64,000 nucleotides of DNA from Octopus vulgaris (lineage: Eukaryota). The notes beneath the pieces were generated by a model, which worked only from the letters and a program-made list of their open reading frames with translations, was not told the DNA's origin and did not search any database. The position numbers were made by a program, and so were the translations under genes. How positions within the stretch are numbered: position 1 is the first letter of the stretch; every line of letters starts with the position of its first letter. The stretch is from contig OX597827.1 of assembly GCA_951406725.2 (NCBI GenBank), positions 45,198,001 to 45,262,000 of the forward strand, written 5' to 3'. This document shows positions 2,741-57,030 of this stretch, in pieces.

Positions 2741-3640
2741 TTAAAAATTACTGGCAGACTTAAACGTGTTTGATACACTTCATACAGAAAGTTAATATTT
2801 ATTGCCACACTTAGTGTAGGAAATTAAAAACAAATATTTTAAATGAAAATCTTGAAAAATATATAAAAAACTATTGCTTATTATATTTAATTAGTCATAT
2901 CTATTTATAACAAAATTTTGAATGAGGCATTTCTTTTGAAGACGATCAGATATTTGTGTAGATTTTCTAAAGAACTAAATTATATATATTAAAGATCTGA
3001 GGTACATCCACATAAATTTTACGACTTAGTTTCACTGTGTATATGTATGTATATATGTTTATATGTATGTATGTATTATGTATATATGTATGCATGTCTC
3101 TTCTATTTTTTAATTATTATAAATTTTCCACTAAGGAGGGAGCAGGTTTCCAACAAAGATATAATGCTCCATCTTTGGGATGTAATTAAAACAGACAAAT
3201 TCACATTTGGAACTTGAGAAAAGTCTTGCATATTTTTACTGTTCCACTCACAGATTGCACTTGTAATGTACGAATCAGCCGGTCAATTTCTCTTTCTAAA
3301 AATCCCAGTTTATCCAGATTCTCCTTTAAGCATTTACTGACAAGACCGAGTGTCCAATTATTATTGATATAAATATGAATTCATAGCCTGGATATAGAAG
3401 CTGGAGGTTTCGAAGTAGTTGTCCATAAATATCCTATTTTTCTTTGATTTTCAAAGATATTTATATCTGCAGGGTAGCTGACCTCTATGACGGTACACAC
3501 TTTTGCCCCTCTGTCCCAAACAACAATATCCATCCTGTAATGTTTACATTTGACAGAAGTTTTGATGGGAATATTCCACCTGTATTCCTTGAGTTGGTGC
3601 TTATAAATGTATTCCACAACAGAGGGGTTTTCTAAGTTTA

Positions 3641-4843
3641 CTAGTGTACCCGTGCCGTCAGAAATGACAGCCTGAAAATGATACAGAAAATAAAATAAAA
3701 TTAAAAAAACTTTACAACCTTTACAAACCCTACCAGCAATGAGTTCACCTTGTTTTGGTTGGTCCGTTTCAGTATTAATTAATTCTTCCATTCTTCTTCT
3801 CGATATTCTCTCCCTTTCGATTTCTCTTCTTTGTGCTTCTTCCTCTTCCGTTTCATCTTGTCGCCTTTGCAATGCTCTCGTTTTTAGATACTCTCTCCTC
3901 ACTGCTGCTTGCTCTTCTGTTTTATCTTGGGGCTTTTGTGCTGCTCTCTCTCTCTCTCTTTGGATATCTCCTCTTTGTGCAATTCGGTGCTCCTTTTCAT
4001 TTTGACGTCTTCGAGTCTGTCTTCTTGAGTCTTGCACTCATCTCCCTTGTCTCGCTTCTTGTGATTGATTTAATAGCCTTAATGTATTGTTCAATCTTCT
4101 TGCGTCCAGTTCTTCCTGAGTGAGACTGGCTGTTCTTCGCCTTTGTCTCTCTCTCTGGCTAACCGTCGCCCTCTGTCTGATTCATTCTTCATAGCAGGTG
4201 GATGAGTATTTTTAATGCAACGGAACACAAACTTCTAAACAAATGAGTATATTTGTGTGTGCATGTGTGTGAGTGTACGTTAGTTTATTCATATTTCTAT
4301 ACAAAGACCAAAATTACACAGGATTACATTAACAGTATTCACACATACTTATTTTTTTCCAGCAACGTCTACATGTTATCTATCTCTGTTTGTCTGTTTC
4401 TGTCTGTCTGTTTGTCTCTCTTTCTCTCTTTACCTCCTGGAATGGAAAAAGATCTTCAAGACAAACTTCACTGCCTTGGCAAAATTCTTCATTCATACAT
4501 ATTTACAAACATCACCGTATCAGCAAGTATTTGTTAATATTTATTATTACCTTCCTTTTATATTTAGCTTTCTTTAAACAGACAATATTATCAAGCTTTC
4601 TTTAAACAGACCAATATTTTAATTTTATGACTTTAAAAATTACTTCTTATTTACTCATCTTACATTCTATTAACTTCACAACTTTTTAAGCAGAAAAATC
4701 TTCCAGAACAGTGAAACATCCATAGAGATATAGAAAAAAATAATTTTGAGGTACAAAAATCTTATTTACTTATCTTATATATTGTTATTAATGTTTACCA
4801 GAAAAATCAGCATTCATCGAATAGAAATGAAAATGTTATTGTT

Positions 4844-12488: not shown

Positions 12489-12955
12489 CAAATTAAATGT
12501 GTGGCTTATTAGCAATTTGAGCCTGAAGAAGGGTACTCACTAGTGCCACTATTGCTAGAAATAAGAGTTAAAATAACTCAAAAGCCACAAAGCACTGTAC
12601 TTAATGACTGACAAAAGGAGGTAGGTCCCCAGCATATATAGCCAGATCAAATGATTTCGGATTTTTATGCATAGCATAGTGGTTTATTAGTAATTTGAAC
12701 CTAAAGACAAAATTAATAGAGTTCACAAAAGTGACAAAGTCTTTGTCAGTCATTAAGATAGTGGTTTGTGGCTTTCGAGTTATTTTAACTCTTATTTCTA
12801 GCAACCGTGGTGCTAGTCAGTACCCCCTGTCACTTTTGTGACCTCTGTTTATATATATATGACTTCTGGCCGAAATCAGATCGCCATGTTGATTCGCTAG
12901 CCTCTGCACGCATTTTTTTCTCTCCTTGTTTCTTTCTGTGTTTCTTTTCTGTGTA

Positions 12956-12993
12956 TCTTTCTGTAGAAGAGCGTAGGCTCGAAACGTAAAAGA
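12956..12993 (+). ncRNA. Minimal hammerhead-like motif with A6U core variant
   Basis: TCTTT-CTGTAGA-A-GAGC-gtag-GCTC-GAAA-CG-TA-AAAGA; stems I and II pair perfectly. Confidence 0.55.
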
Positions 12994-13283
12994 CTTGTTT
13001 TATTTATATTCCTGAGCGCCATACTAATACAATTGTTTGTTTGTATTCCACCTGCCTTCGTCTTTTGTTTATTTTCATAAAGCTTCCCGTTATATATATA
13101 TATATATATATATACATATATATCCCCAGCATGGCCACAGTCAAATGACTAAAACAAGTAAAAGTAAAAGTAAGTAAAGTATATATATAAAATCAATCCA
13201 GACATGAACAAGCAAGAAAAAACAACAACGCGGAATAAATACAGTGTTATTGGACGCTCAGGAAAGGAAAGAAAAGAAAGAGG

Positions 13284-13318
13284 ACTTCACGTTTCGAGCG
13301 GAGCTTTTCGTCAGAAAT
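13284..13318 (-). ncRNA. Degenerate minimal hammerhead (copy of the 45310 family)
   Basis: Minus strand ATTT-CTGACGA-A-AAGC-tcc-GCTC-GAAAC-GTG-AAGT; the GUG triplet is expected to be non-cleaving. Confidence 0.55.
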
Positions 13319-13665
13319 ATAGAAAAAGTCCAAAGAAGGGAAGACGGAGAAAGGAAATCGCCAACGATACACACGCGGTCACATATATATATATATATAT
13401 ATTCGACGGAATTTGAACTCAGAACATAAAGACGGACGAAATGTCGCTAAGCATTTTACTCGGCGCGCTAAATATTCTACCAGCTCGTCGCCTTAATAAC
13501 AACAACAACAACAACAACATTAATTACAAAAGCAATAACATTAATTCTTAATATAGGCACAAAATGTGGGATTTGAGAGGCGGGGCTTAGCCGATTAGAC
13601 CAATGCCATTGTTTGTAATTTATCGACGCAGTAAAGATGGCAGACATAGCTAACCACAGCGGAGT

Positions 13666-15453: not shown

Positions 15454-15717
15454 AGAATAAATAGATACATATCTATCTATCTATAGAATAAATAGATACA
15501 TATCTATCTATCTATAGAATAAATAGATACATATGTGTAGTGGCTCGCTAACCACTACACATTCTTTATTTTCTCTCCTTGTTTCCTTCTGTGTTACTTT
15601 TTGTGGAAGAGCTTAGGCTCGAAACGTTAAAGACTTTTTCCCTTCACGAGTGTTATACTAATACATCTCTTTGTTGTCTACACCAGCTGTCTTCGTCTTT
15701 TGATTTTTTGTGAATTT

Positions 15718-15761
<44 letters not shown>

Positions 15762-16821: not shown

Positions 16822-18107
16822 TTGGGTTGGCAACTAAGTTCCCGCCGTTTTTTTAAATTTTGGAATTTATTGCGTTTTTAAATTTTGGATGTATTTTTTT
16901 CGAGAATTATATTTTTGAATCATTTTGGAATCTATTTTGATTTTTTTCTCTAGTTAATTTTAGTTACTTTTTGTCTATTTTCAGATCATTAAAATGGCAT
17001 GTCAAGTGAAGAAAAAGAGCATTTTCGACACCTCCTTCCTTTTGCTTTTAATCAAGGTTCTAGGGTCACAAAAGCTGCTTGCGACATTTGTGCTGTGTAT
17101 GGAGAGGGTGCCATAGCTGAAAGAACCACTCGTATGCCAAGTTCAAAAATGGAAATTTTGACCTCAAAGACGCACCTCGTTCTGGCCGTCCAGTTGAGTT
17201 CGATGAAGAGCGATTAAACCAACGTTTGCACGAAAATTCTTGTCAAACGACAAGGGAACTGGCAGAGAAAACGGAATGCTTCTACACTGCTATAGAGAAG
17301 CATCTTCATTCGATGGGAAAAGCTCAGAAGTATGGAGCATGGGTTCTGCATGCTTTAAGTAACAACAACAAAAATCAACGAGCCATTATCTCCGCTGGTT
17401 TGCTTGCTCGTCACCGCTCAACGCATGGACACAAGCAACGATTTCTTAACCGAACCGTTACTGGTGATGAAAAATGGCGCCTGAACATCAATATGAAGCA
17501 GCGTAAGGAATGGCTTAGCCCCGCTAAACAAGCGACACCGCGCATGACACAAGATCTTCATCCGCGTAAAACGATGTTGTGTGTATGGTGGGGCTGGGAA
17601 GGGATTATCCATTACGTATTGTTTGAACGGAACCAAAGAGTCAATGCGGAACTCTATGTTCAACAGATGGAACGACTCAACACGGCTATTCAAGAGAAAA
17701 GACCGAATCGGCAGCATGGAGTTCTGCTGCACGACAACGCCCGCCCTCATATCGCCAATATGACCAAGGTAGCCATTCAAACGCATAGCTGGGATGTGCT
17801 GCCACACCCGCCGTACTCTCCTGATTTGGTACCAACGGATTTCTACCTCTTTCGATCTCTTTTAAATGCTACGCGCAGAGTTTCGTTCAATATTGATGTA
17901 GAATTGAGAGCTTGGCTGGATCAATTTTTCGAGTCGAAATCGGGTGATTTCTACCAACAAGGTATTGAAAATCTTGTTGAACGTTGGGAAGAAGTGGTAA
18001 ACAACAAGGGTGAATACATTATTGATTAATTAGTTGTTATTTTTTTTATTAAACCTTTTAAAAAATTTAAATTAAAAAGAACAGCGGGAACTTAGTTGCC
18101 AACCCAA
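16822..18107 (+). mobile_element. Full-length mariner DNA transposon (DD34D, mellifera-like TIR)
   Basis: TIRs TTGGGTTGGCAACTAAGTTCCCGC / GCGGGAACTTAGTTGCCAACCCAA, TA duplication at 16820-21 and 18108-09, length 1286 bp. Confidence 0.97.
16999..18029 (+). pseudogene. Mariner transposase, frameshifted near 17131
   Basis: N-terminal HFRHLL...YGEGAIAERT, then after a frame change YAKFKNGNFDLKDAPRSGRP, WVLHAL (WVPHEL-like), TGDEKW, HDNARPH, YSPDLVPTD. There are 34 residues between the second and third Asp. Confidence 0.95.
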
Positions 18108-24053: not shown

Positions 24054-24199
24054 GCGAATATTCATGTGTATATATAATATAGCTATGTTCGAAACGTAAA
24101 ACAACCATTCTTATCCTTCTCTGAGCGTCTTATTAATACTTTACATATACTACGTTCTCACGTTCTTGTTTTTTTCTCGTCTTTTTCTACATTTTTTGA

Positions 24200-24236
<37 letters not shown>

Positions 24237-28145: not shown

Positions 28146-28694
28146 TGCCAACATTATGGAATAACAACAGAAAAAAGATGGCATAGGCACACACCAGAAA
28201 AGGTCACAGAAAACGAGAAAGTAATCATACTCTGGGATATGCCGATACACACAGATAGAGAAATTAAGGCCAACAGACCAGATATAGTTGTCAGAAATCA
28301 TGAAGAAAAAAAAAAATGCTTTCTAATTGATGTATCAATACCGGCAGATGACAACGTGTCTCTAAAAGAAATGGAGAAACTTTCAAAATACAAAGACCTA
28401 GAAATAGAGGTAACCAGAATGTGGAATCTAAAAACAGAAACAATTCCTATCATAGTAGGTGCATTAGGCATGATAAAAAAATATTCAGACAAATACATAA
28501 CAAAAACACCAGGACTTACAAACACATATAACATACAGAAAATTGCACTACTAAGCACTGCACACATCCTACGCAGAACACTTTCCATACAATAACCATC
28601 AGAGCATCACAACAAATCACAGCACATACCTAAGGCACACAGAGCTGCGCTCGGTAGTGAAGTGAAAGCACGCTATAAAAATAAAACTACTGAA
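28146..28694 (+). mobile_element. 3' fragment of a Dong/R4-clade non-LTR retrotransposon with open RLE domain (ORF 28146-28595)
   Basis: CQHYGI...WHRHTPEKV.ENEKVIILWDMPIHTDREIKANRPDIVV...CFLIDVSIPADDNVSLKEMEKLSKYKDL...IPIIVGALG...IQKIALLSTAHILRR*. The 5' break is directly on (AAT)n, the known target of Dong elements. Confidence 0.92.
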
Positions 28695-31291: not shown

Positions 31292-31760
31292 GAAAGTGTG
31301 TCAATAGCCAGCTGGAGGAGGTGTCCTCCTGGGGCTACAAGCTACAGTAGCACCCACCCTTAGGGGTTAGCCATATTTAAGTGGCAAATATACTTCACGA
31401 TGTCGTGCAGCTACTGTTTATACCTCGCTCAGAGATTTATTATTGCTTGTTTACACTTTTTCGATATCAGTGACTTTTCGTCACTGGAAAAAGGATATAT
31501 ATATATTTGCAAAGGGAGACCTAGTTTTCATCGACAACCAGTGATTGTCACACGCTGATGACGGGTCAATAACCAGAAACTCGAGCCCGTGTGTATCATA
31601 GGTTGAAGACGGGAAGGATGGCTTCCCTTTGCAAATACTGATATGGCACAGAAAGTGTGTCAATAGCCAGCTGGAGGAGGCGTCCTCCTGGGGCTACAAG
31701 CTACAGTAGCATCCACCCTCAACGGTTAGCCACATTTAAGTGGCAAATATACTTCACGAT
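31292..31760 (+). mobile_element. Retrozyme-like unit: 110-bp direct repeats with a 359-bp period around a hammerhead
   Basis: 31292-31401 is nearly identical to 31651-31760; hammerhead at 31549-31593. Confidence 0.7.
31549..31593 (+). ncRNA. Type I hammerhead ribozyme motif, cleavage triplet mutated (GCC)
   Basis: CACACG-CTGATGA-CGGGTcaataACCA-GAAA-C-TCGA-G-CC-CGTGTG; perfect stem I and palindromic stem III loop. Confidence 0.8.
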
Positions 31761-44825: not shown

Positions 44826-45070
44826 TTTTTCACTGAGTTTCATTTAAGTTCATAAGAGAGTTGAACACGGTCGTTAACAAAGCGACAAGATTTTTTGAGC
44901 TCCCGAATTTTGTAAATATGTGGTTGAGCCGGTGTGTTGGTCGAAGTGTTGATGCACTCCACAAGGGAGTGCGTCTATTCACCTTAAGAATCTCAGATGG
45001 AGAATCCTTGAAATGCTTCACAAATCTTCACTGTGCCACTAATAGATTTGGATATGGAGAATTTTTTTGT
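44826..45070 (-). mobile_element. Short 3' fragment of an RLE-type LINE
   Basis: KSISGTVKICEAFQGFSI* C-terminus matches the 3095 and 57782 fragments; it lies between (TATG)n tracts. Confidence 0.6.
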
Positions 45071-45309
45071 ATGTATGTAGGCATGTATGTATGGATCAAT
45101 GCATGCATGTATGTATGCCACTGCCAAAACCACACACATATCTGCGCGCACGCATATACCCACACATACCTCCTTCTCTTGCACTCTCCTGTCTTTGAAA
45201 GAACTTTTCTTCACCCATTCCCTTCCGGTCATTTCAATATGTGACCACGTGTGTATCGTTGGCAATTTTCTTTCTCCGTCTTTCCTTCCTTGGACCTTTC
45301 CTTTTTCTA

Positions 45310-45346
45310 TGTTTCTGACGAAGAGCTCCGCTCGAAACGTTAAATG
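45310..45346 (+). ncRNA. Minimal hammerhead ribozyme motif
   Basis: TGTTT-CTGACGA-A-GAGC-tcc-GCTC-GAAA-CG-TT-AAATG; the AACGTT palindrome would allow a dimeric stem III. Confidence 0.7.
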
Positions 45347-45484
45347 CTCCTTCTTTCTTTCCTTTCCTGAGCGTCCAATAACACTATACTTGTTCCACTT
45401 GTGTTTTCTCTTTGTTCATGTTTGAATTAACCATGTATGTATGTATGTATGTATGTAGCTATGTGTGTGAGTGTGTGTGTGTGC

Positions 45485-45532
<48 letters not shown>

Positions 45533-46697
45533 TTCGCTTTTGTCTGACTTCTTTTAGTTAAATAGAGTTTCTACTGTTTGAGTTACAAATTCTCAGACAT
45601 TTTGGCCGCCGTTTCGCTTTATTCCTTTTGTCTCATTTTGACTGCAAAATCACGATTTGATTCTCTCACTCAACAGGCCGCTCTAAATACACACTACACG
45701 TTGACTTCGGAGCCTGCAACTAAGCCAGCCAGGAGCCTCTGAGTTATCAGAATAAGAAGCAAATCTTCATCAAAATCACTTTACCGATAGAATAAGTAAC
45801 AGTTGCTAAAAAATTCTAGGTATTACTCTATTATCAACTCTCATACGGTTAGGATTGGTTTTTTCAGCACTAAAAATTCTTACAAATTATCTCTTCACAT
45901 AATAACAACCTGTTTATTATTAATACATTTACTAATACTAACATTAATTTAGCTAATACCATCCATCCCTCTAGAAATATTAATAACAAGGTTATTGTAT
46001 CTGAAGTCAATTCCAACAGAATCAAGTAACCCTAAAATTAAAAATTCTATATACCAGTGTAAAATTACTACTCATAATCAAGTATATTTTTCTATTAGAA
46101 GCACGTCTTTACAGTTATCTAGAAGGATTTCTAATCACTACTCGACATTTAGGGATAGGGATAAACGTAACAGTACAGGGCTCAGTAAATTAATTTGGGA
46201 CTAAAAGACCACAATAAACAGTTTAATTGAGATTCGTTGATTCTCTCAATCTCGATACCTTATGACAAAGGCAAGGAATTCTGTCTTCTCTGTAATTCTA
46301 AACTATTTTTCATTATTTTTTCTAAAAATCCCCAAGTAAACATACTGATGTAAACATTGGCAAAAACACACCATAGTTCGTATAAGTGATCTCTATCATT
46401 ATATATAATTTAAGCATCAATTTTCTTTTTATATTTCACATTCACTAAATATATATTTTTCGAGTACATAAGGTTTTATTTAATATACATTTAGTCGTAT
46501 CCTTCTCACCTATTTAGTTTTTCTTTAATTTATCCCTCCTCTTTCTATAGACTACCTATGACGTTATATTATATAACGTTTTTTCAAACAATATTAATAG
46601 CGTTCACTTAATCACTATACATATCCATCATTTTCTGTTAAAATGTCTTATTGACGAGTTTCATTTCTTCACTTCCCTGAAGAGAAGATTACATTGT

Positions 46698-47280
46698 TTT
46701 ACACGAGAAGGAAGAGTCATTTTCATCGTACATGTGGCTATGGCGAAAGAATGTGTATGGTGGACACGTCTGAAAGGTCTAGTGACAAACACTTTCCTTT
46801 CTGGTCAATCCCTCATCAACTTCTTCAAGTGTCACTTGAAGAGGAAGGTGAGAGTAGAGAGGGCAGTTTTGTCTAGTGAATATTTCAAAATAAGATGGGT
46901 GAATTTAGCAAGGATGGCAAGTGTGAATGACGGAGCCAGCTTGAGCATAAGCCTATGAATCAGAAAAAAAGAAAGGAAAAAAGATTCACTTACTGTAATG
47001 TGTTTTTTTGAATGACATCATTATTACCGTGGTTACCGTGGTCTTTCCCGTAGGCTTTTCTTTCCACGGATAAACCTAATCTGTTTTCCCTTTTTACATT
47101 GACATTTCTGTGATACACGATCCCTATTGATCGGCCTTTCTTTTTCTTTTTCTTTTTCGACGATCCCTTTTGATCGAAATTCGACCCACTTTTTTTCTCT
47201 TCTTCCCCAAAAGAAATGCTCTACTTTGTATTTTGTCTCCTCTGTGTTCAGCCCTGTGCGGCCAATAAAGAAACATATCT
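46698..47280 (+). mobile_element. Shorter copy of the same Tx1-like LINE 3' end
   Basis: MAKECVWWTRLKGLVTNTFLSGQSLINFFKCHLKRK and a 3' UTR colinear with 56415-57035; ends AATAAAGAAACATATCT. Confidence 0.9.
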
Positions 47281-52583: not shown

Positions 52584-53150
52584 AGGCGCAGCCATGGCTG
52601 TGTGATAAGAAGCTTGTTTCGCAACCACATGGTTCTGGGTTCAGTAACACTGCGTGGCACCTTTGGCAGGTGTCTTCTTCTATGGCCTCGGGCCGACCAT
52701 GGCTTTGTGAGTGGATTTGGTAGACGGAACTATGTATATATGTATGTATTTATGTATGTATGTATGTATGTATGTATGTATGTATGTATGTATGTATGTA
52801 TTTATGTATGTATGTATGTATGTATGTATGTATGTATGTATTCATGCATGCATGCTTGCATGCATGTATGTATGTATGTATGTATGTATGTATGTATGTA
52901 TGTATGTATGTATGTATGTATGTATGTATGTATTTGTGTGTGTGTGTGTCTGTGTTTGTCTCCCCACAATCGCTTGACAACCGATGCTGGTGTGTTTATG
53001 TACCCGTAACCTGTTGGTTCGGCAAAAGAGACCGATAGAATAATAAGTGCTAGGTTTACAAAGACTAAGTCCCGGAGTCGATTTGTTCGACTAAAGGCGG
53101 TGCTCCAGCATGGCCGCAGTCAAATGACTGAAACAAGTAAAAGAATAAAA
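52584..53150 (+). mobile_element. SINE family A with expanded internal (TATG)n, ending ~55 bp from the GPCR splice donor
   Basis: Colinear with the 2094 copy. Confidence 0.88.
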
Positions 53151-53208
53151 GAATAAGAAAAAAAGAAAGAAATAAAGGTGACAAGAAACACCAAAAAAAG
53201 CCTCTTAC

Positions 53209-53574
53209 CTCGTTCCACTTGTGCCTCCAGCCGTATTCCTTCCCAGAGATTTTTCACTATCTTGCCGTAAGCCACTGACATTATGACAATAGGAAAAAGC
53301 AGGAGTATGTTGTCCAGACTGATAGTGTAGATTTTCTCTGCTAGTTTACTGGTCCAGAACTCACGGCACACGTTCAACGAGGGGAACGATCTCAGTCTGG
53401 TATAGGTGCCGATCGGGATGGTGACAATTCCAGCCAGAACCCAACAGATGGCTATGGTGAGATAGGCGTGAGATAACGTCTGCCACGACCGTGAATGGAG
53501 TGGTTTGCAAATGGCGAAGTATCTTTCCAGCGATATGGCGACTAGAGTGAAACAGCTCACTGATACGGATACAC
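53209..53574 (-). CDS. CCKR: Internal exon (TM3-TM5) of a cholecystokinin/gastrin/sulfakinin-type class A GPCR
   Basis: Translates (G)VSVSVSCFTLVAISLERYFAICKPLHSRSWQTLSHAY...CREFW...LLLFPIVIMSVAYGKIVKNLWEGIR. The SVSVSxFTLVAISLERYxAICxPLxSRxWQTxSHA block is characteristic of CCK receptors. Acceptor ttatttccAG (AG at 53576-53575) and donor G|GTAAG (GT at 53208-53207); 366 bp, phase 1-1. No other exon of the gene was recognised in the window. Confidence 0.93.
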
Positions 53575-53616
53575 CTGGAAATAATAACAAATTATCCATC
53601 ATCATCATCATCATCA

Positions 53617-53653
<37 letters not shown>

Positions 53654-54063
53654 GTGATGAAAACCACCACCACCACCACTACTAACAACAACAACAACAA
53701 CACCACGACGACCATCATCATCATTATTATCGTCACCACCACCACCATAATCATCATCATCGTCATCATCACCTTGTGTGTGTGTGCGTGTGTGTGAGTC
53801 TATCTGTCTGTCTGTCTGTGTATCCGTGTCTCTCCCCACCACCGCTTGTCAACCGGGGTTAGTGTGTTCTCGTCTCGGTAGCATAACGGATTGGCAAAAA
53901 ACACCGATAGAATAAGTACCAGGCTTAAAAAGAAATATACTAGTGGGATCGATTCGTTTGACTAAAATTTTTCAGGGCGATGCCCCAGCATGGCCGCAAT
54001 CTAATAACTGATACAAGAACAAATAAAAGATATATAAACAATTTAACATTAAACTGAAGGCTC

Positions 54064-55052: not shown

Positions 55053-55503
55053 TAGATTGAAAAAACAGAAAGATGGGCAATGGGAAGAAAGGAAGGGTAG
55101 AAAAAGAAGGAAAAGAAGAAGAAGAAAGTGAAAAAGAAGAAGAAGAAAGTGAAGAAGAAAAAGAAAAAGAAAGGAGACGGGGAAGCATAAGAAAGAAGAG
55201 AGGAATAAAAAGGTAAATGGAAGAAAACAAAATGGAAAAGGGAAATAAAAGCAAGAAAGAAGGAAAAGAATAAGAAGAACGCAAAAAAACAAAAAGAGAC
55301 GACAGGAGAAAGGGGTGGAGACGAAGAAGAAAAAGAAGAAGGAAAAGAAGAAGAAGAAGAAGAAGAAGAAGAAGAAGAAGAAGAAGAAGAAGAAGAAGAA
55401 GAAGAAGAAAGGAGAAGAGACGAAGAAGCCTGAGAAAACGACAGAACGGTAAAAGCCTAACACCAGAAGGAAAAGGAGAAAAGGGACAACGACGTGTGTG
55501 TGC

Positions 55504-55558
<55 letters not shown>

Positions 55559-55690
55559 CATGTAAATACAATTGCAGAAAATAATTTAAATGTACATATC
55601 TGCCATGTTGTATATTTGAATGTTTATGCATGTTTACATGTTTGTTTACAAGCGAACTTAGCACCGACTCGGGTAACATCTTTTCATTCC

Positions 55691-57030
55691 TATCTATCTA
55701 AACTACAACGCATTCTCTTTCGCTTCTTGTGGAAAGGATGCGTCCCGATGGTCAGGCGATCCATTTGCTGTCAACACCCGCTAAAAGGAGGCATGCCGTG
55801 GTTGATGATGTGCAGACACGCGCTGAGACTGCGACATCTCTGGCTCTATGTAGACGACGGTGAACAGGTGTGGTCGCCGTTTGTGAGGCACGCTTTCCCG
55901 CAGCTCGTCTCCATGACCGAACTGCAGTCGTGGATCAAAAAGAGGCCGAGGAAGGGCGAATGGCACCGCGAGTGTCGCGTTGCTCTCAAGCAACTCTGCC
56001 GTCCCGGGTCGACCTTGAGTGACTCCAACACAACCAAAGCATTCTATAGGGGATTAGTGGAGGGGAGGTACGACGACGCGCTCGGGGCGAACCTGGACGT
56101 CGACGAGGAGTACCTGACCCGCCTGTTCGGGACGACTTTCGGGCCAGGGCCCATGGACAACTTCCAGAGATCCCTGGCCTGACAGTGTTACCGAGAAGCG
56201 CTACCCGTTCGGGATAAGCTCTATAGACACGGCTCGAGAAACACGGGGCCGACCTGCCCGAGATGCGGTCAGAGCGACGAAACCGTTCTGCACGCACTCG
56301 TGCAGTGTCCAAGAATTTCCGACCTGTGGGCTTGTGTCGAACAACTGCTGTCACGTATGGGACGAGTCGGTTTATCAGCTGAGTCTATCGTCAATATTGT
56401 CACGCCTCCTTCCTTCAAACGGGAAGGAAGAGCTATTTTCATCATCCCTGTGGCTATGGCGAAAGAATGTATCTGGTGGACGCGTCTGAAAGCATTGGAG
56501 ACAAACACTTTCCTCTCTGGTCAATCTCTCATCAACTTCTTCAAGTACCACTTGAAAAGGAAAGTGATAGTAGAGAGGCAAGTTTTGTCTAGCGAATGTT
56601 TTAAAAAAAGATGGGTGAATGTAGCAAGGATGGCACGTATGAATGACGAAGCCACCTTGAGCATAATCCTATGAACCCAGAAATTGAAAACAGAGGGTTA
56701 CCCACTTGCAAACAAATGTGGTAACATATAACAATATTGACTGAGGTTACCGTGGTCTTTTTCGTAGGCTTTTCTTCCCACGAATAAACCTTATCTGCTT
56801 CCCCCTTTACACCGTACATCTTGACACTGTGATACACGATCCCTATTGATCGTTTTTTTTCCTCTTCTCCTTTTTCCTCTTTTTTCTTTTCTTTTGTTTC
56901 TTTTCCTTTTTTTCTTTTTTCCCTTTTACGATCCCTTTTGATCGAAAACTTTTGCCACTTTTTTTTTCATCCCCATAAGAAAAGCTCTACCTTGTAATCT
57001 GTGTGCAGCCCTGTGTGGCCAATAAAGAAA
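55691..57030 (+). mobile_element. 3' fragment of a Tx1/L1-clade LINE (ORF2 C-terminus 55691-56674 plus 3' UTR)
   Basis: FRFLWKG...LKGGMP...LPVRDKL...CPRCGQSDETVLHALVQCP (CCHC zf-RVT motif)...IWWTR...FKKRW, with one in-frame TGA at 56180-82. Ends AATAAAGAAAC then (TATC)n. Confidence 0.92.

Follow-up and report, generated by a model that had tools for sequence, protein, structure and literature searches.

The 64,000-nucleotide stretch of Octopus vulgaris DNA analysed here (hereafter the window) contains, at 45311-45345, a minimal hammerhead ribozyme motif embedded in a repeat which, we think it likely, is the 3' terminal repeat (pseudo-LTR, or pLTR) of a Penelope-like element (PLE), left as 5'-truncated copies in the microsatellites of an octopod genome. 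With this reading, a motif and a class of element known since 2014 gain an octopod family, and a very abundant repeat that might otherwise pass for an unclassified SINE could be better annotated. The minimal hammerhead (min-HHR) is defined by the lack of a loop on helix III and is present in thousands of mostly single copies per genome, tied to truncated PLEs; its cleavage is weak and has been seen for dimers and trimers only (Cervera and de la Pena, 2014; PMC4209133). The study of Lunse, Weinberg and Breaker (RNA Biol 14:1499), as summarized in a review (PMC6765202), is to the same effect.

The minimal hammerhead and its copies in the window

The motif CTGACGA-A-GAGC(TCC)GCTC-GAAA-CG-T-T, pointed out in an initial annotation of this DNA, is present without any mismatch on the + strand at 45315-45341 (Table 1). 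A strict min-HHR pattern matches the window once and 300 shuffled windows not at all, while a looser pattern made of stem II and GAAACGT has three matches in the window versus 0.00 expected (100 shuffles). Upon folding, stem II of copy 1 has a pair probability of 0.67-0.68, and the G10.1-C11.1 pair is present as G45323-C45333, neither position being among those that vary at 5% or more in the sequencing runs considered below. Two of the pairings first proposed have to be redrawn. Helix III is palindromic as claimed but consists of ACGT (A15.1-U16.1), the word AACGTT adding the core nucleotides A14 and H17; indeed, ACGT is found in five of the five window copies and AACGTT in just two. Stem I, drawn as TGTTT/AAATG, retains four pairs, since position 45346 reads C in 93-99% of aligned run depth and the fifth pair, T45310-G45346, is thus private to copy 1. 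The prediction that helix III forms only between two molecules is borne out by a sequence devoid of loop 3 and of an intramolecular helix III.

Table 1. Coordinates of the hammerhead, of the repeat that carries it and of related copies in the window
Feature	Positions	Strand	Basis or remark
Degenerate (TATG)n microsatellite, 5' flank of copy 1	45069..45117	+	Sequence
5' extension, AC-rich then pyrimidine-rich	45118..45237	+	Supported to ~45143; 45118 inferred from microsatellite junction
pLTR-sized 3' terminal unit of copy 1	45238..45432	+	Depth step at 45240-45250; (TA)n loose ends; 84.5% to copy 2
Minimal type-I hammerhead	45311-45345	+	Full core, stems I and II 4 bp each, helix III = ACGU
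Stem I	45311-14/45342-45	+	From sequence
C3-A9 (CTGACGA)	45315-21	+	From sequence
Extra unpaired A	45322	+	Between 9 and 10.1
Stem II, GAGC/GCTC around TCC	45323-26/45330-33	+	From sequence
G12-A14	45334-36	+	From sequence
Palindromic ACGT	45337-40	+	From sequence
H17	45341	+	Predicted cut 3' of H17
Downstream box CCTGAGCGTCCAATAA	45365..45385	+	Kept across sister families
(ATGT)n, (TG)n and (AG)n microsatellites, 3' flank	45433..45532	+	Begin 91 nt after H17
Copy 2, same family, pLTR-sized	13190..13383	-	Between (TA)n tracts; G10.1>A (13306), H17=G (13288)
Copy 3, distant sister	24081..24202	+	Hammerhead 3' half and box alone recognisable; then (TA)n
Copy 4, sister family	12861..13090	+	Stem I 5 bp; core CTGTAGA (A6>U); (TA)n tracts on both sides
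Copy 5, in one sister family with copy 4	15535..15720	+	Core TTGTGGA (C3>U, A6>U); after (TCTA)n, before (TC)n

The further suggestion that a stem III shorter than usual is a novelty fails, the same form having been published for PLEs in 2014. The motif is a min-HHR of the kind already described for PLEs and not a new, shorter form of hammerhead. As in the min-HHRs of that report (PMC4209133), there is a type-I core with no loop 3, a palindromic 15.2-16.2, an extra nucleotide after A9, the G10.1-C11.1 pair, a short helix I (4-5 bp; here 4), a predicted requirement for a dimer and thousands of mostly single, dispersed copies. Helix II differs from that of the Schistosoma min-HHR families (4 bp here versus 7-8 bp there). 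In Rfam, no window match reached the gathering score and no hammerhead was among the 14 weak matches at 44900-45700. A 39-codon open reading frame (ORF) starting at ATG 45309 was set aside, copy 2 having no such ATG.

Three copies had been counted in the window; those three are related, but two sister copies had been missed, making five in total. The inverted copy 2 is a true homologue of copy 1 (84.5% over 194 columns, E 7e-55), with a ribozyme that is broken because G10.1 and H17 are both changed, and an intact hammerhead core is found in copy 1 alone (1/5). The segment at 24090-24200, which had been taken for a 3' half of the same family, proved instead to be a distant sister (70% over 67 nt, E 0.12). 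Copy 4 aligns with copy 1 at 70.8% over 113 nt (E 1e-7) and copy 5 with copy 4 at 72.3% over 184 columns (E 6e-25), and A6U is present in both of these sister-family copies. The shared downstream CTGAGCG box and the abutting microsatellites are both there, as had been noticed: the box is identical at 21/21 positions in copy 2 and at 13-16/21 in the three sister copies, and the 3' end lies at a microsatellite 91-104 nt past H17 in 5/5 copies, an adjacency that is weakened as evidence because the window itself is microsatellite-rich (213 TRF rows). Nowhere in the window are same-family copies arranged in tandem or as inverted partners, all five being single.

Several other observations were made on or near these copies. 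Copy 5 opens with a perfect 9-bp hairpin (GTGTAGTGG/CCACTACAC) at 15535-15560, which copy 4 does not have, and a MITE-like fold-back stands beside copy 4 at 12531-12825 (an 85-bp inverted repeat, 89% alike, with a ~125-bp spacer). At 31425-31495 on the - strand, TGACGAAAAGTCACTG...CGAAAAAGTG is followed about 25 nt on by CTCTGAGCG, after (TA)n, and this could be the much degraded remains of a sixth copy, of the sister-family type. An off-switch in which the GAGC of the downstream box would pair with stem II was rejected for now, the pair probability being low (<0.05 in copy 1, 0.07-0.12 in copy 2).

Extent of the element and its abundance in public sequencing runs

Words of the unit occur in 23 of the 24 public runs listed, across five organism codes, and four of the 24 (X1, X4, X5 and X9; three organisms), of which X1 may share the source of the window, were aligned to 45160-45436 at 80% likeness. 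The matching contigs number 12,037 (X1), 10,555 (X4), 4,325 (X5) and 3,278 (X9). Summed depth in X1 reaches 4.4 M over the hammerhead and 2.6 M over the CTGAGCG box, which forms a second peak, but does not exceed 0.5-0.9 M on the 5' arm and 0.17-0.26 M at 45170-45239. Although summed depth is not copy number, these figures suggest roughly 10^4 copies of the family and still more sister-family hammerheads, most of the single contigs listed being near depth 50. Family-specific patterns had no match in metagenomes or in viral contigs (0 in each), and the one genome-contig match (L118) is unrelated outside a 19-mer and within chance.

The initial annotation had the element begin at 45241 with a length of ~190 bp. 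This is not the whole of it: depth and loose ends reach at least ~45143, the loose ends before 45161 matching window positions 45144-45169 in 4/4 runs. The family continues 5' of 45241 in all four runs, with an extension-to-arm depth ratio of 0.20-0.26, so that ~190 bp is a common truncation, a frequent shorter class of the family. Depth is lost stepwise toward the 5' end, with a step up at 45240-45250, and loose ends in (TA)n were found before 45237 in run X1 and behind 45431 in run X4. The 5' limit of copy 1 is probably the microsatellite junction at ~45118, which would give it a length of about 315 bp, flanked by (TATG)n tracts, and the 45118..45237 extension, of which the window holds no other copy, is likely to be 3' UTR of the parent PLE. 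The view of a dispersed, non-autonomous ribozyme retroelement holds as to a dispersed, high-copy and ribozyme-bearing retroelement repeat. That the ~190 bp form a self-standing family does not follow, since 5' of the unit the depth still amounts to about a fifth to a quarter.

Probable connection with Penelope-like elements and competing readings

The same core and stem II were found in 117 metagenome loci (118 matches, H17 never being G), while the general core pattern had 0 matches in viral contigs and 0 in genome contigs. Fragments of PLE endonuclease or reverse transcriptase (EN/RT) are present in 17 of these 117 loci, all 17 in sense orientation, with their ends 97-677 nt before the motif; among the 17, three are the query loci and several are duplicates, and 37/117 loci are about 600 bp or less. 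In locus L023, an RVT_1 domain (E 5e-8) is followed by a GIY-YIG-type domain; of 32 longer relatives of the latter, 27 carry PF00078 and two carry PF01541, which we take to be the GIY-YIG family. Three EN segments on their own had no Pfam match at E<=0.001. Stem I covaries at pair 2, which is canonical in 40 of 51 distinct metagenome contexts versus 20.8 after shuffling (C-G 18, G-C 17; relatedness not removed), and pairs 3 and 4 are not above shuffles in these 51 contexts. In the window, no PLE ORF was found, tblastn with four PLE segments giving a best E of 0.94. With the hammerhead as the one feature common to the 117 loci and the window, and with no PLE ORF in the latter, the PLE link of the octopod family would hold by analogy.

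Other features of the metagenome loci deserve mention. In long-loop min-HHRs (L007, L011, L023, L025, L029, L044, L050, L060, L076, L091, L099 and others), (G)GAGC stands 20-51 nt after the cut site; it occurs downstream in 20 of 27 long-loop contexts versus 3 upstream, often after AATAAA, and in this group the pair adjoining GAGC does not covary (12/21 versus 9.4 shuffled, p=0.16), which also speaks against the off-switch. This (G)GAGC may be a promoter or protein-binding motif, and any homology with the octopod CTGAGCG box would be conjectural. At L043:604-689, a min-HHR on one strand is placed back to back with another on the opposite strand, as in PLE ends of the inverted insertion form.

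The octopod repeat resembles the C-terminal EN+ PLEs (Neptune, Hydra, Penelope/Poseidon; PMC8557442, PMC11167929) by its sense-strand hammerhead near the 3' end, its microsatellite or (TA)n targets, its 5' truncation and a 3' end that lies some 90-100 nt beyond the site of cutting. Hammerheads in pLTRs near 3' ends, a bias for microsatellites and non-autonomous PLEs have all been described, the function of the hammerhead being called unclear, and supplementary rows of the same paper give a (TA)n preference for octopus Naiad and Hydra elements (Craig et al., 2021; PMC8557442). In the anole PAc element, whose hammerhead requires protein, the RNA is cut at +26 and reverse transcription starts at +111-118, which by subtraction is 85-92 nt past the cut site; catalytic mutants still insert in vitro, and none of the RNA-seq reads terminates where the cut is made (Frangieh et al., 2024; PMC11167929). 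In our nearest-neighbour model, which ignores core contacts, the active dimer hammerhead of the octopod repeat has -3.7 kcal/mol versus -24.7 for the best alternative dimer and -8.1 per monomer, so that activity would not be spontaneous, in agreement with PAc. Of the other features known from EN+ PLEs, neither an ORF nor partial-tandem pLTRs, an inverted 5' partner or the optional 30-40-bp tail was observed among the five window copies of the octopod repeats.

As a mechanism, we propose that a PLE GIY-YIG nuclease would nick a (TA)n or (TATG)n tract, that the reverse transcriptase would start some 90-100 nt beyond the site of hammerhead cutting, and that reverse transcription would usually stop early, leaving stubs of ~190 bp or ~315 bp. 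The recurring start at 45238-45241 could mark the boundary of the pLTR; alternatively, truncation could be favoured at this point, the ATATGT of the element matching a (TA)n target there. Cutting would be confined to pairs of motifs joined through ACGU, as would likely arise in tandem PLE transcripts assisted by the PLE protein; an isolated genomic stub such as copy 1 is for this reason probably inert.

The same enzymes might have acted on another source RNA. The ~190-315-bp unit would then be a true non-autonomous PLE derivative with short masters of its own; read-through would supply its transcripts, and an autonomous PLE would mobilise it in trans, as for MRC1 of Chlamydomonas. The fairly sharp depth step at ~45240, with its recurrent (TA)n junctions, fits such a defined short master and counts against a PLE tail. 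Further points that weigh against the PLE tail are the EN segments without a Pfam match, the absence of tandem or inverted same-family pairs from the window, the weak modelled dimer and a core no better conserved than its flanks within the family. Copies 2 and 5 moreover begin directly at a microsatellite without the extension, the ~120-nt extension has no ORF, and non-autonomous PLEs already have precedents. Against this speaks the 5' continuation of depth in every run aligned, as does the published pattern of ordinary PLEs, which is one of mostly single, truncated min-HHR copies with few full elements. On balance, we regard the existence of such separate masters as rather unlikely, and the 5'-truncated PLE terminal repeat as the better account.

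Two readings that do without a PLE fare worse. Size, absence of coding capacity, lack of a Pol III promoter and a type-I hammerhead are what would be expected of a non-LTR retrozyme, a tandem ~200-400-nt repeat whose hammerhead-cut monomers spread via circular RNA, and the metazoan retrozymes are likewise short and non-coding (Cervera and de la Pena, 2020; PMC7229834). Those retrozymes, however, have canonical hammerheads with a helix III stem-loop in head-to-tail tandem arrays making circRNA, whereas here the motif is minimal and dispersed, without loop 3 and without a hammerhead match in Rfam, the loose ends enter a microsatellite and not a next unit, and the ~190-bp unit folds no better than shuffles (z = -0.38), its RNA not being highly self-paired. 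A retrozyme is hence very improbable. It would be more surprising still if the repeat were a tRNA-derived SINE whose B box, resembling GTTCGAAAC, merely mimics half a hammerhead, even though the host is SINE-rich, GTTCGAAAC occurs in copy 3 (24081) and the other copies are one letter off. Indeed, the initial annotation rightly reported no Pol III promoter: the A box is present in 0/5 copies and the B box in 1/5, ARAGORN detects no tRNA gene in the window, and a full CUGANGA core with stems I and II, found elsewhere 3' of PLE ORFs, would be left unexplained.

No description of this octopod family or of U4C or A6U in PLEs was among the papers listed by our literature searches; Repbase, Dfam or the O. 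vulgaris Zenodo repeat library may contain one. Thirty recently active Penelope families have been reported for O. vulgaris in a paper whose main text is without ribozymes (Bonar, 2026), and 235 Rfam hammerheads are given in the giant squid paper.

Variation of the catalytic core and other features of the window

The initial annotation had made its case depend on core nucleotides being better conserved than their flanks across copies. Within the family they are not: once four positions at which the window copy alone differs are dropped, 2/11 core, 5/18 stem and 16/121 flank positions vary at >=5% (core versus flanks, p=0.65). Across sister families, the hammerhead does exceed its surroundings, copies 4 and 5 sharing with copy 1 54/67 hammerhead columns versus 127/234 columns of arm and spacer (p=1e-4), in an alignment anchored on the motif and with the box excluded. 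The change U4>C takes 35, 34, 47 and 44% of depth in the four runs; these shares carry the weighting of assembler contigs, and reads of sister families may be mixed in. CpG decay was rejected as the source of this U4/C4 split because its expected counterpart, G>A at 45317, stays below 5% in 4/4 runs. The outer stem-I pair (45311-45345) is G-U in copy 1 and A-U in copy 2, while G-C accounts for 48-72% of depth.

These data hint that some subfamilies have spread with altered catalytic letters. U4C in a viroid hammerhead gave low activity in vitro and sufficient activity in vivo, and A6C in a phage hammerhead a kobs below 0.1/min (Perreault, 2011; PMC3088659). In this respect the octopod repeats depart from published min-HHRs, with U4C in a large share of the family and A6U in its sister, U3-A8 being the only core change named in the cited part of that work (PMC4209133). 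A bolder proposal, which we put forward as a speculation with the balance of probability clearly against it, is that octopod PLE families were amplified to thousands of copies from masters with an already altered core (U4C in ~40% of this family, A6U in its sister) whose stems I and II and ACGU palindrome were retained, the motif being selected as a signal for RNA dimerisation or for loading of the reverse transcriptase and not as a cutter. If this were true, core-altered families would amount to a natural experiment on what PLE hammerheads do, and high-copy U4C or A6U subfamilies would allow testing whether cleavage is under selection.

The window contains further features. A 110-bp direct repeat (94.5% alike, period 359) at 31292-31760 encloses a decayed type-I hammerhead at ~31551-31595 (+), two changes from intact, with a 6-bp stem I CACACG/CGTGTG, a CTGATGA core, an extra C and a palindromic C-TCGA-G loop 3; the whole resembles the end of a PLE in partial tandem, or else a retrozyme-like unit from another family. 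An exon of a cholecystokinin-receptor-A-like GPCR lies on the - strand at 53120-53848 (7tm_1, E 1.5e-23), the best relative of 53171-53590 among the matches listed being an Argonauta hians protein (88%), with Octopus paralogues at about 60%, which points to an octopod host. Copy 1, about 8 kb further along in the direction of this gene, is possibly intronic and antisense to it. Remnants of other mobile elements include a mariner-type transposase at 17121-18029 (+) (Transposase_1, E 2.7e-21) and two related LINE-like 3' parts at 55274-56674 and 46551-46958 (+), with zf-RVT (E 4.9e-6) in 56183-56674. The ORFs at 3381-4037 (-) and 28146-28595 (+) have no Pfam match and presumably resemble the restriction-like endonuclease end of non-LTR retrotransposons. 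Finally, a 15-bp tandem repeat with GGAAACGAGT extends over 1419-1626 in about 11 copies.
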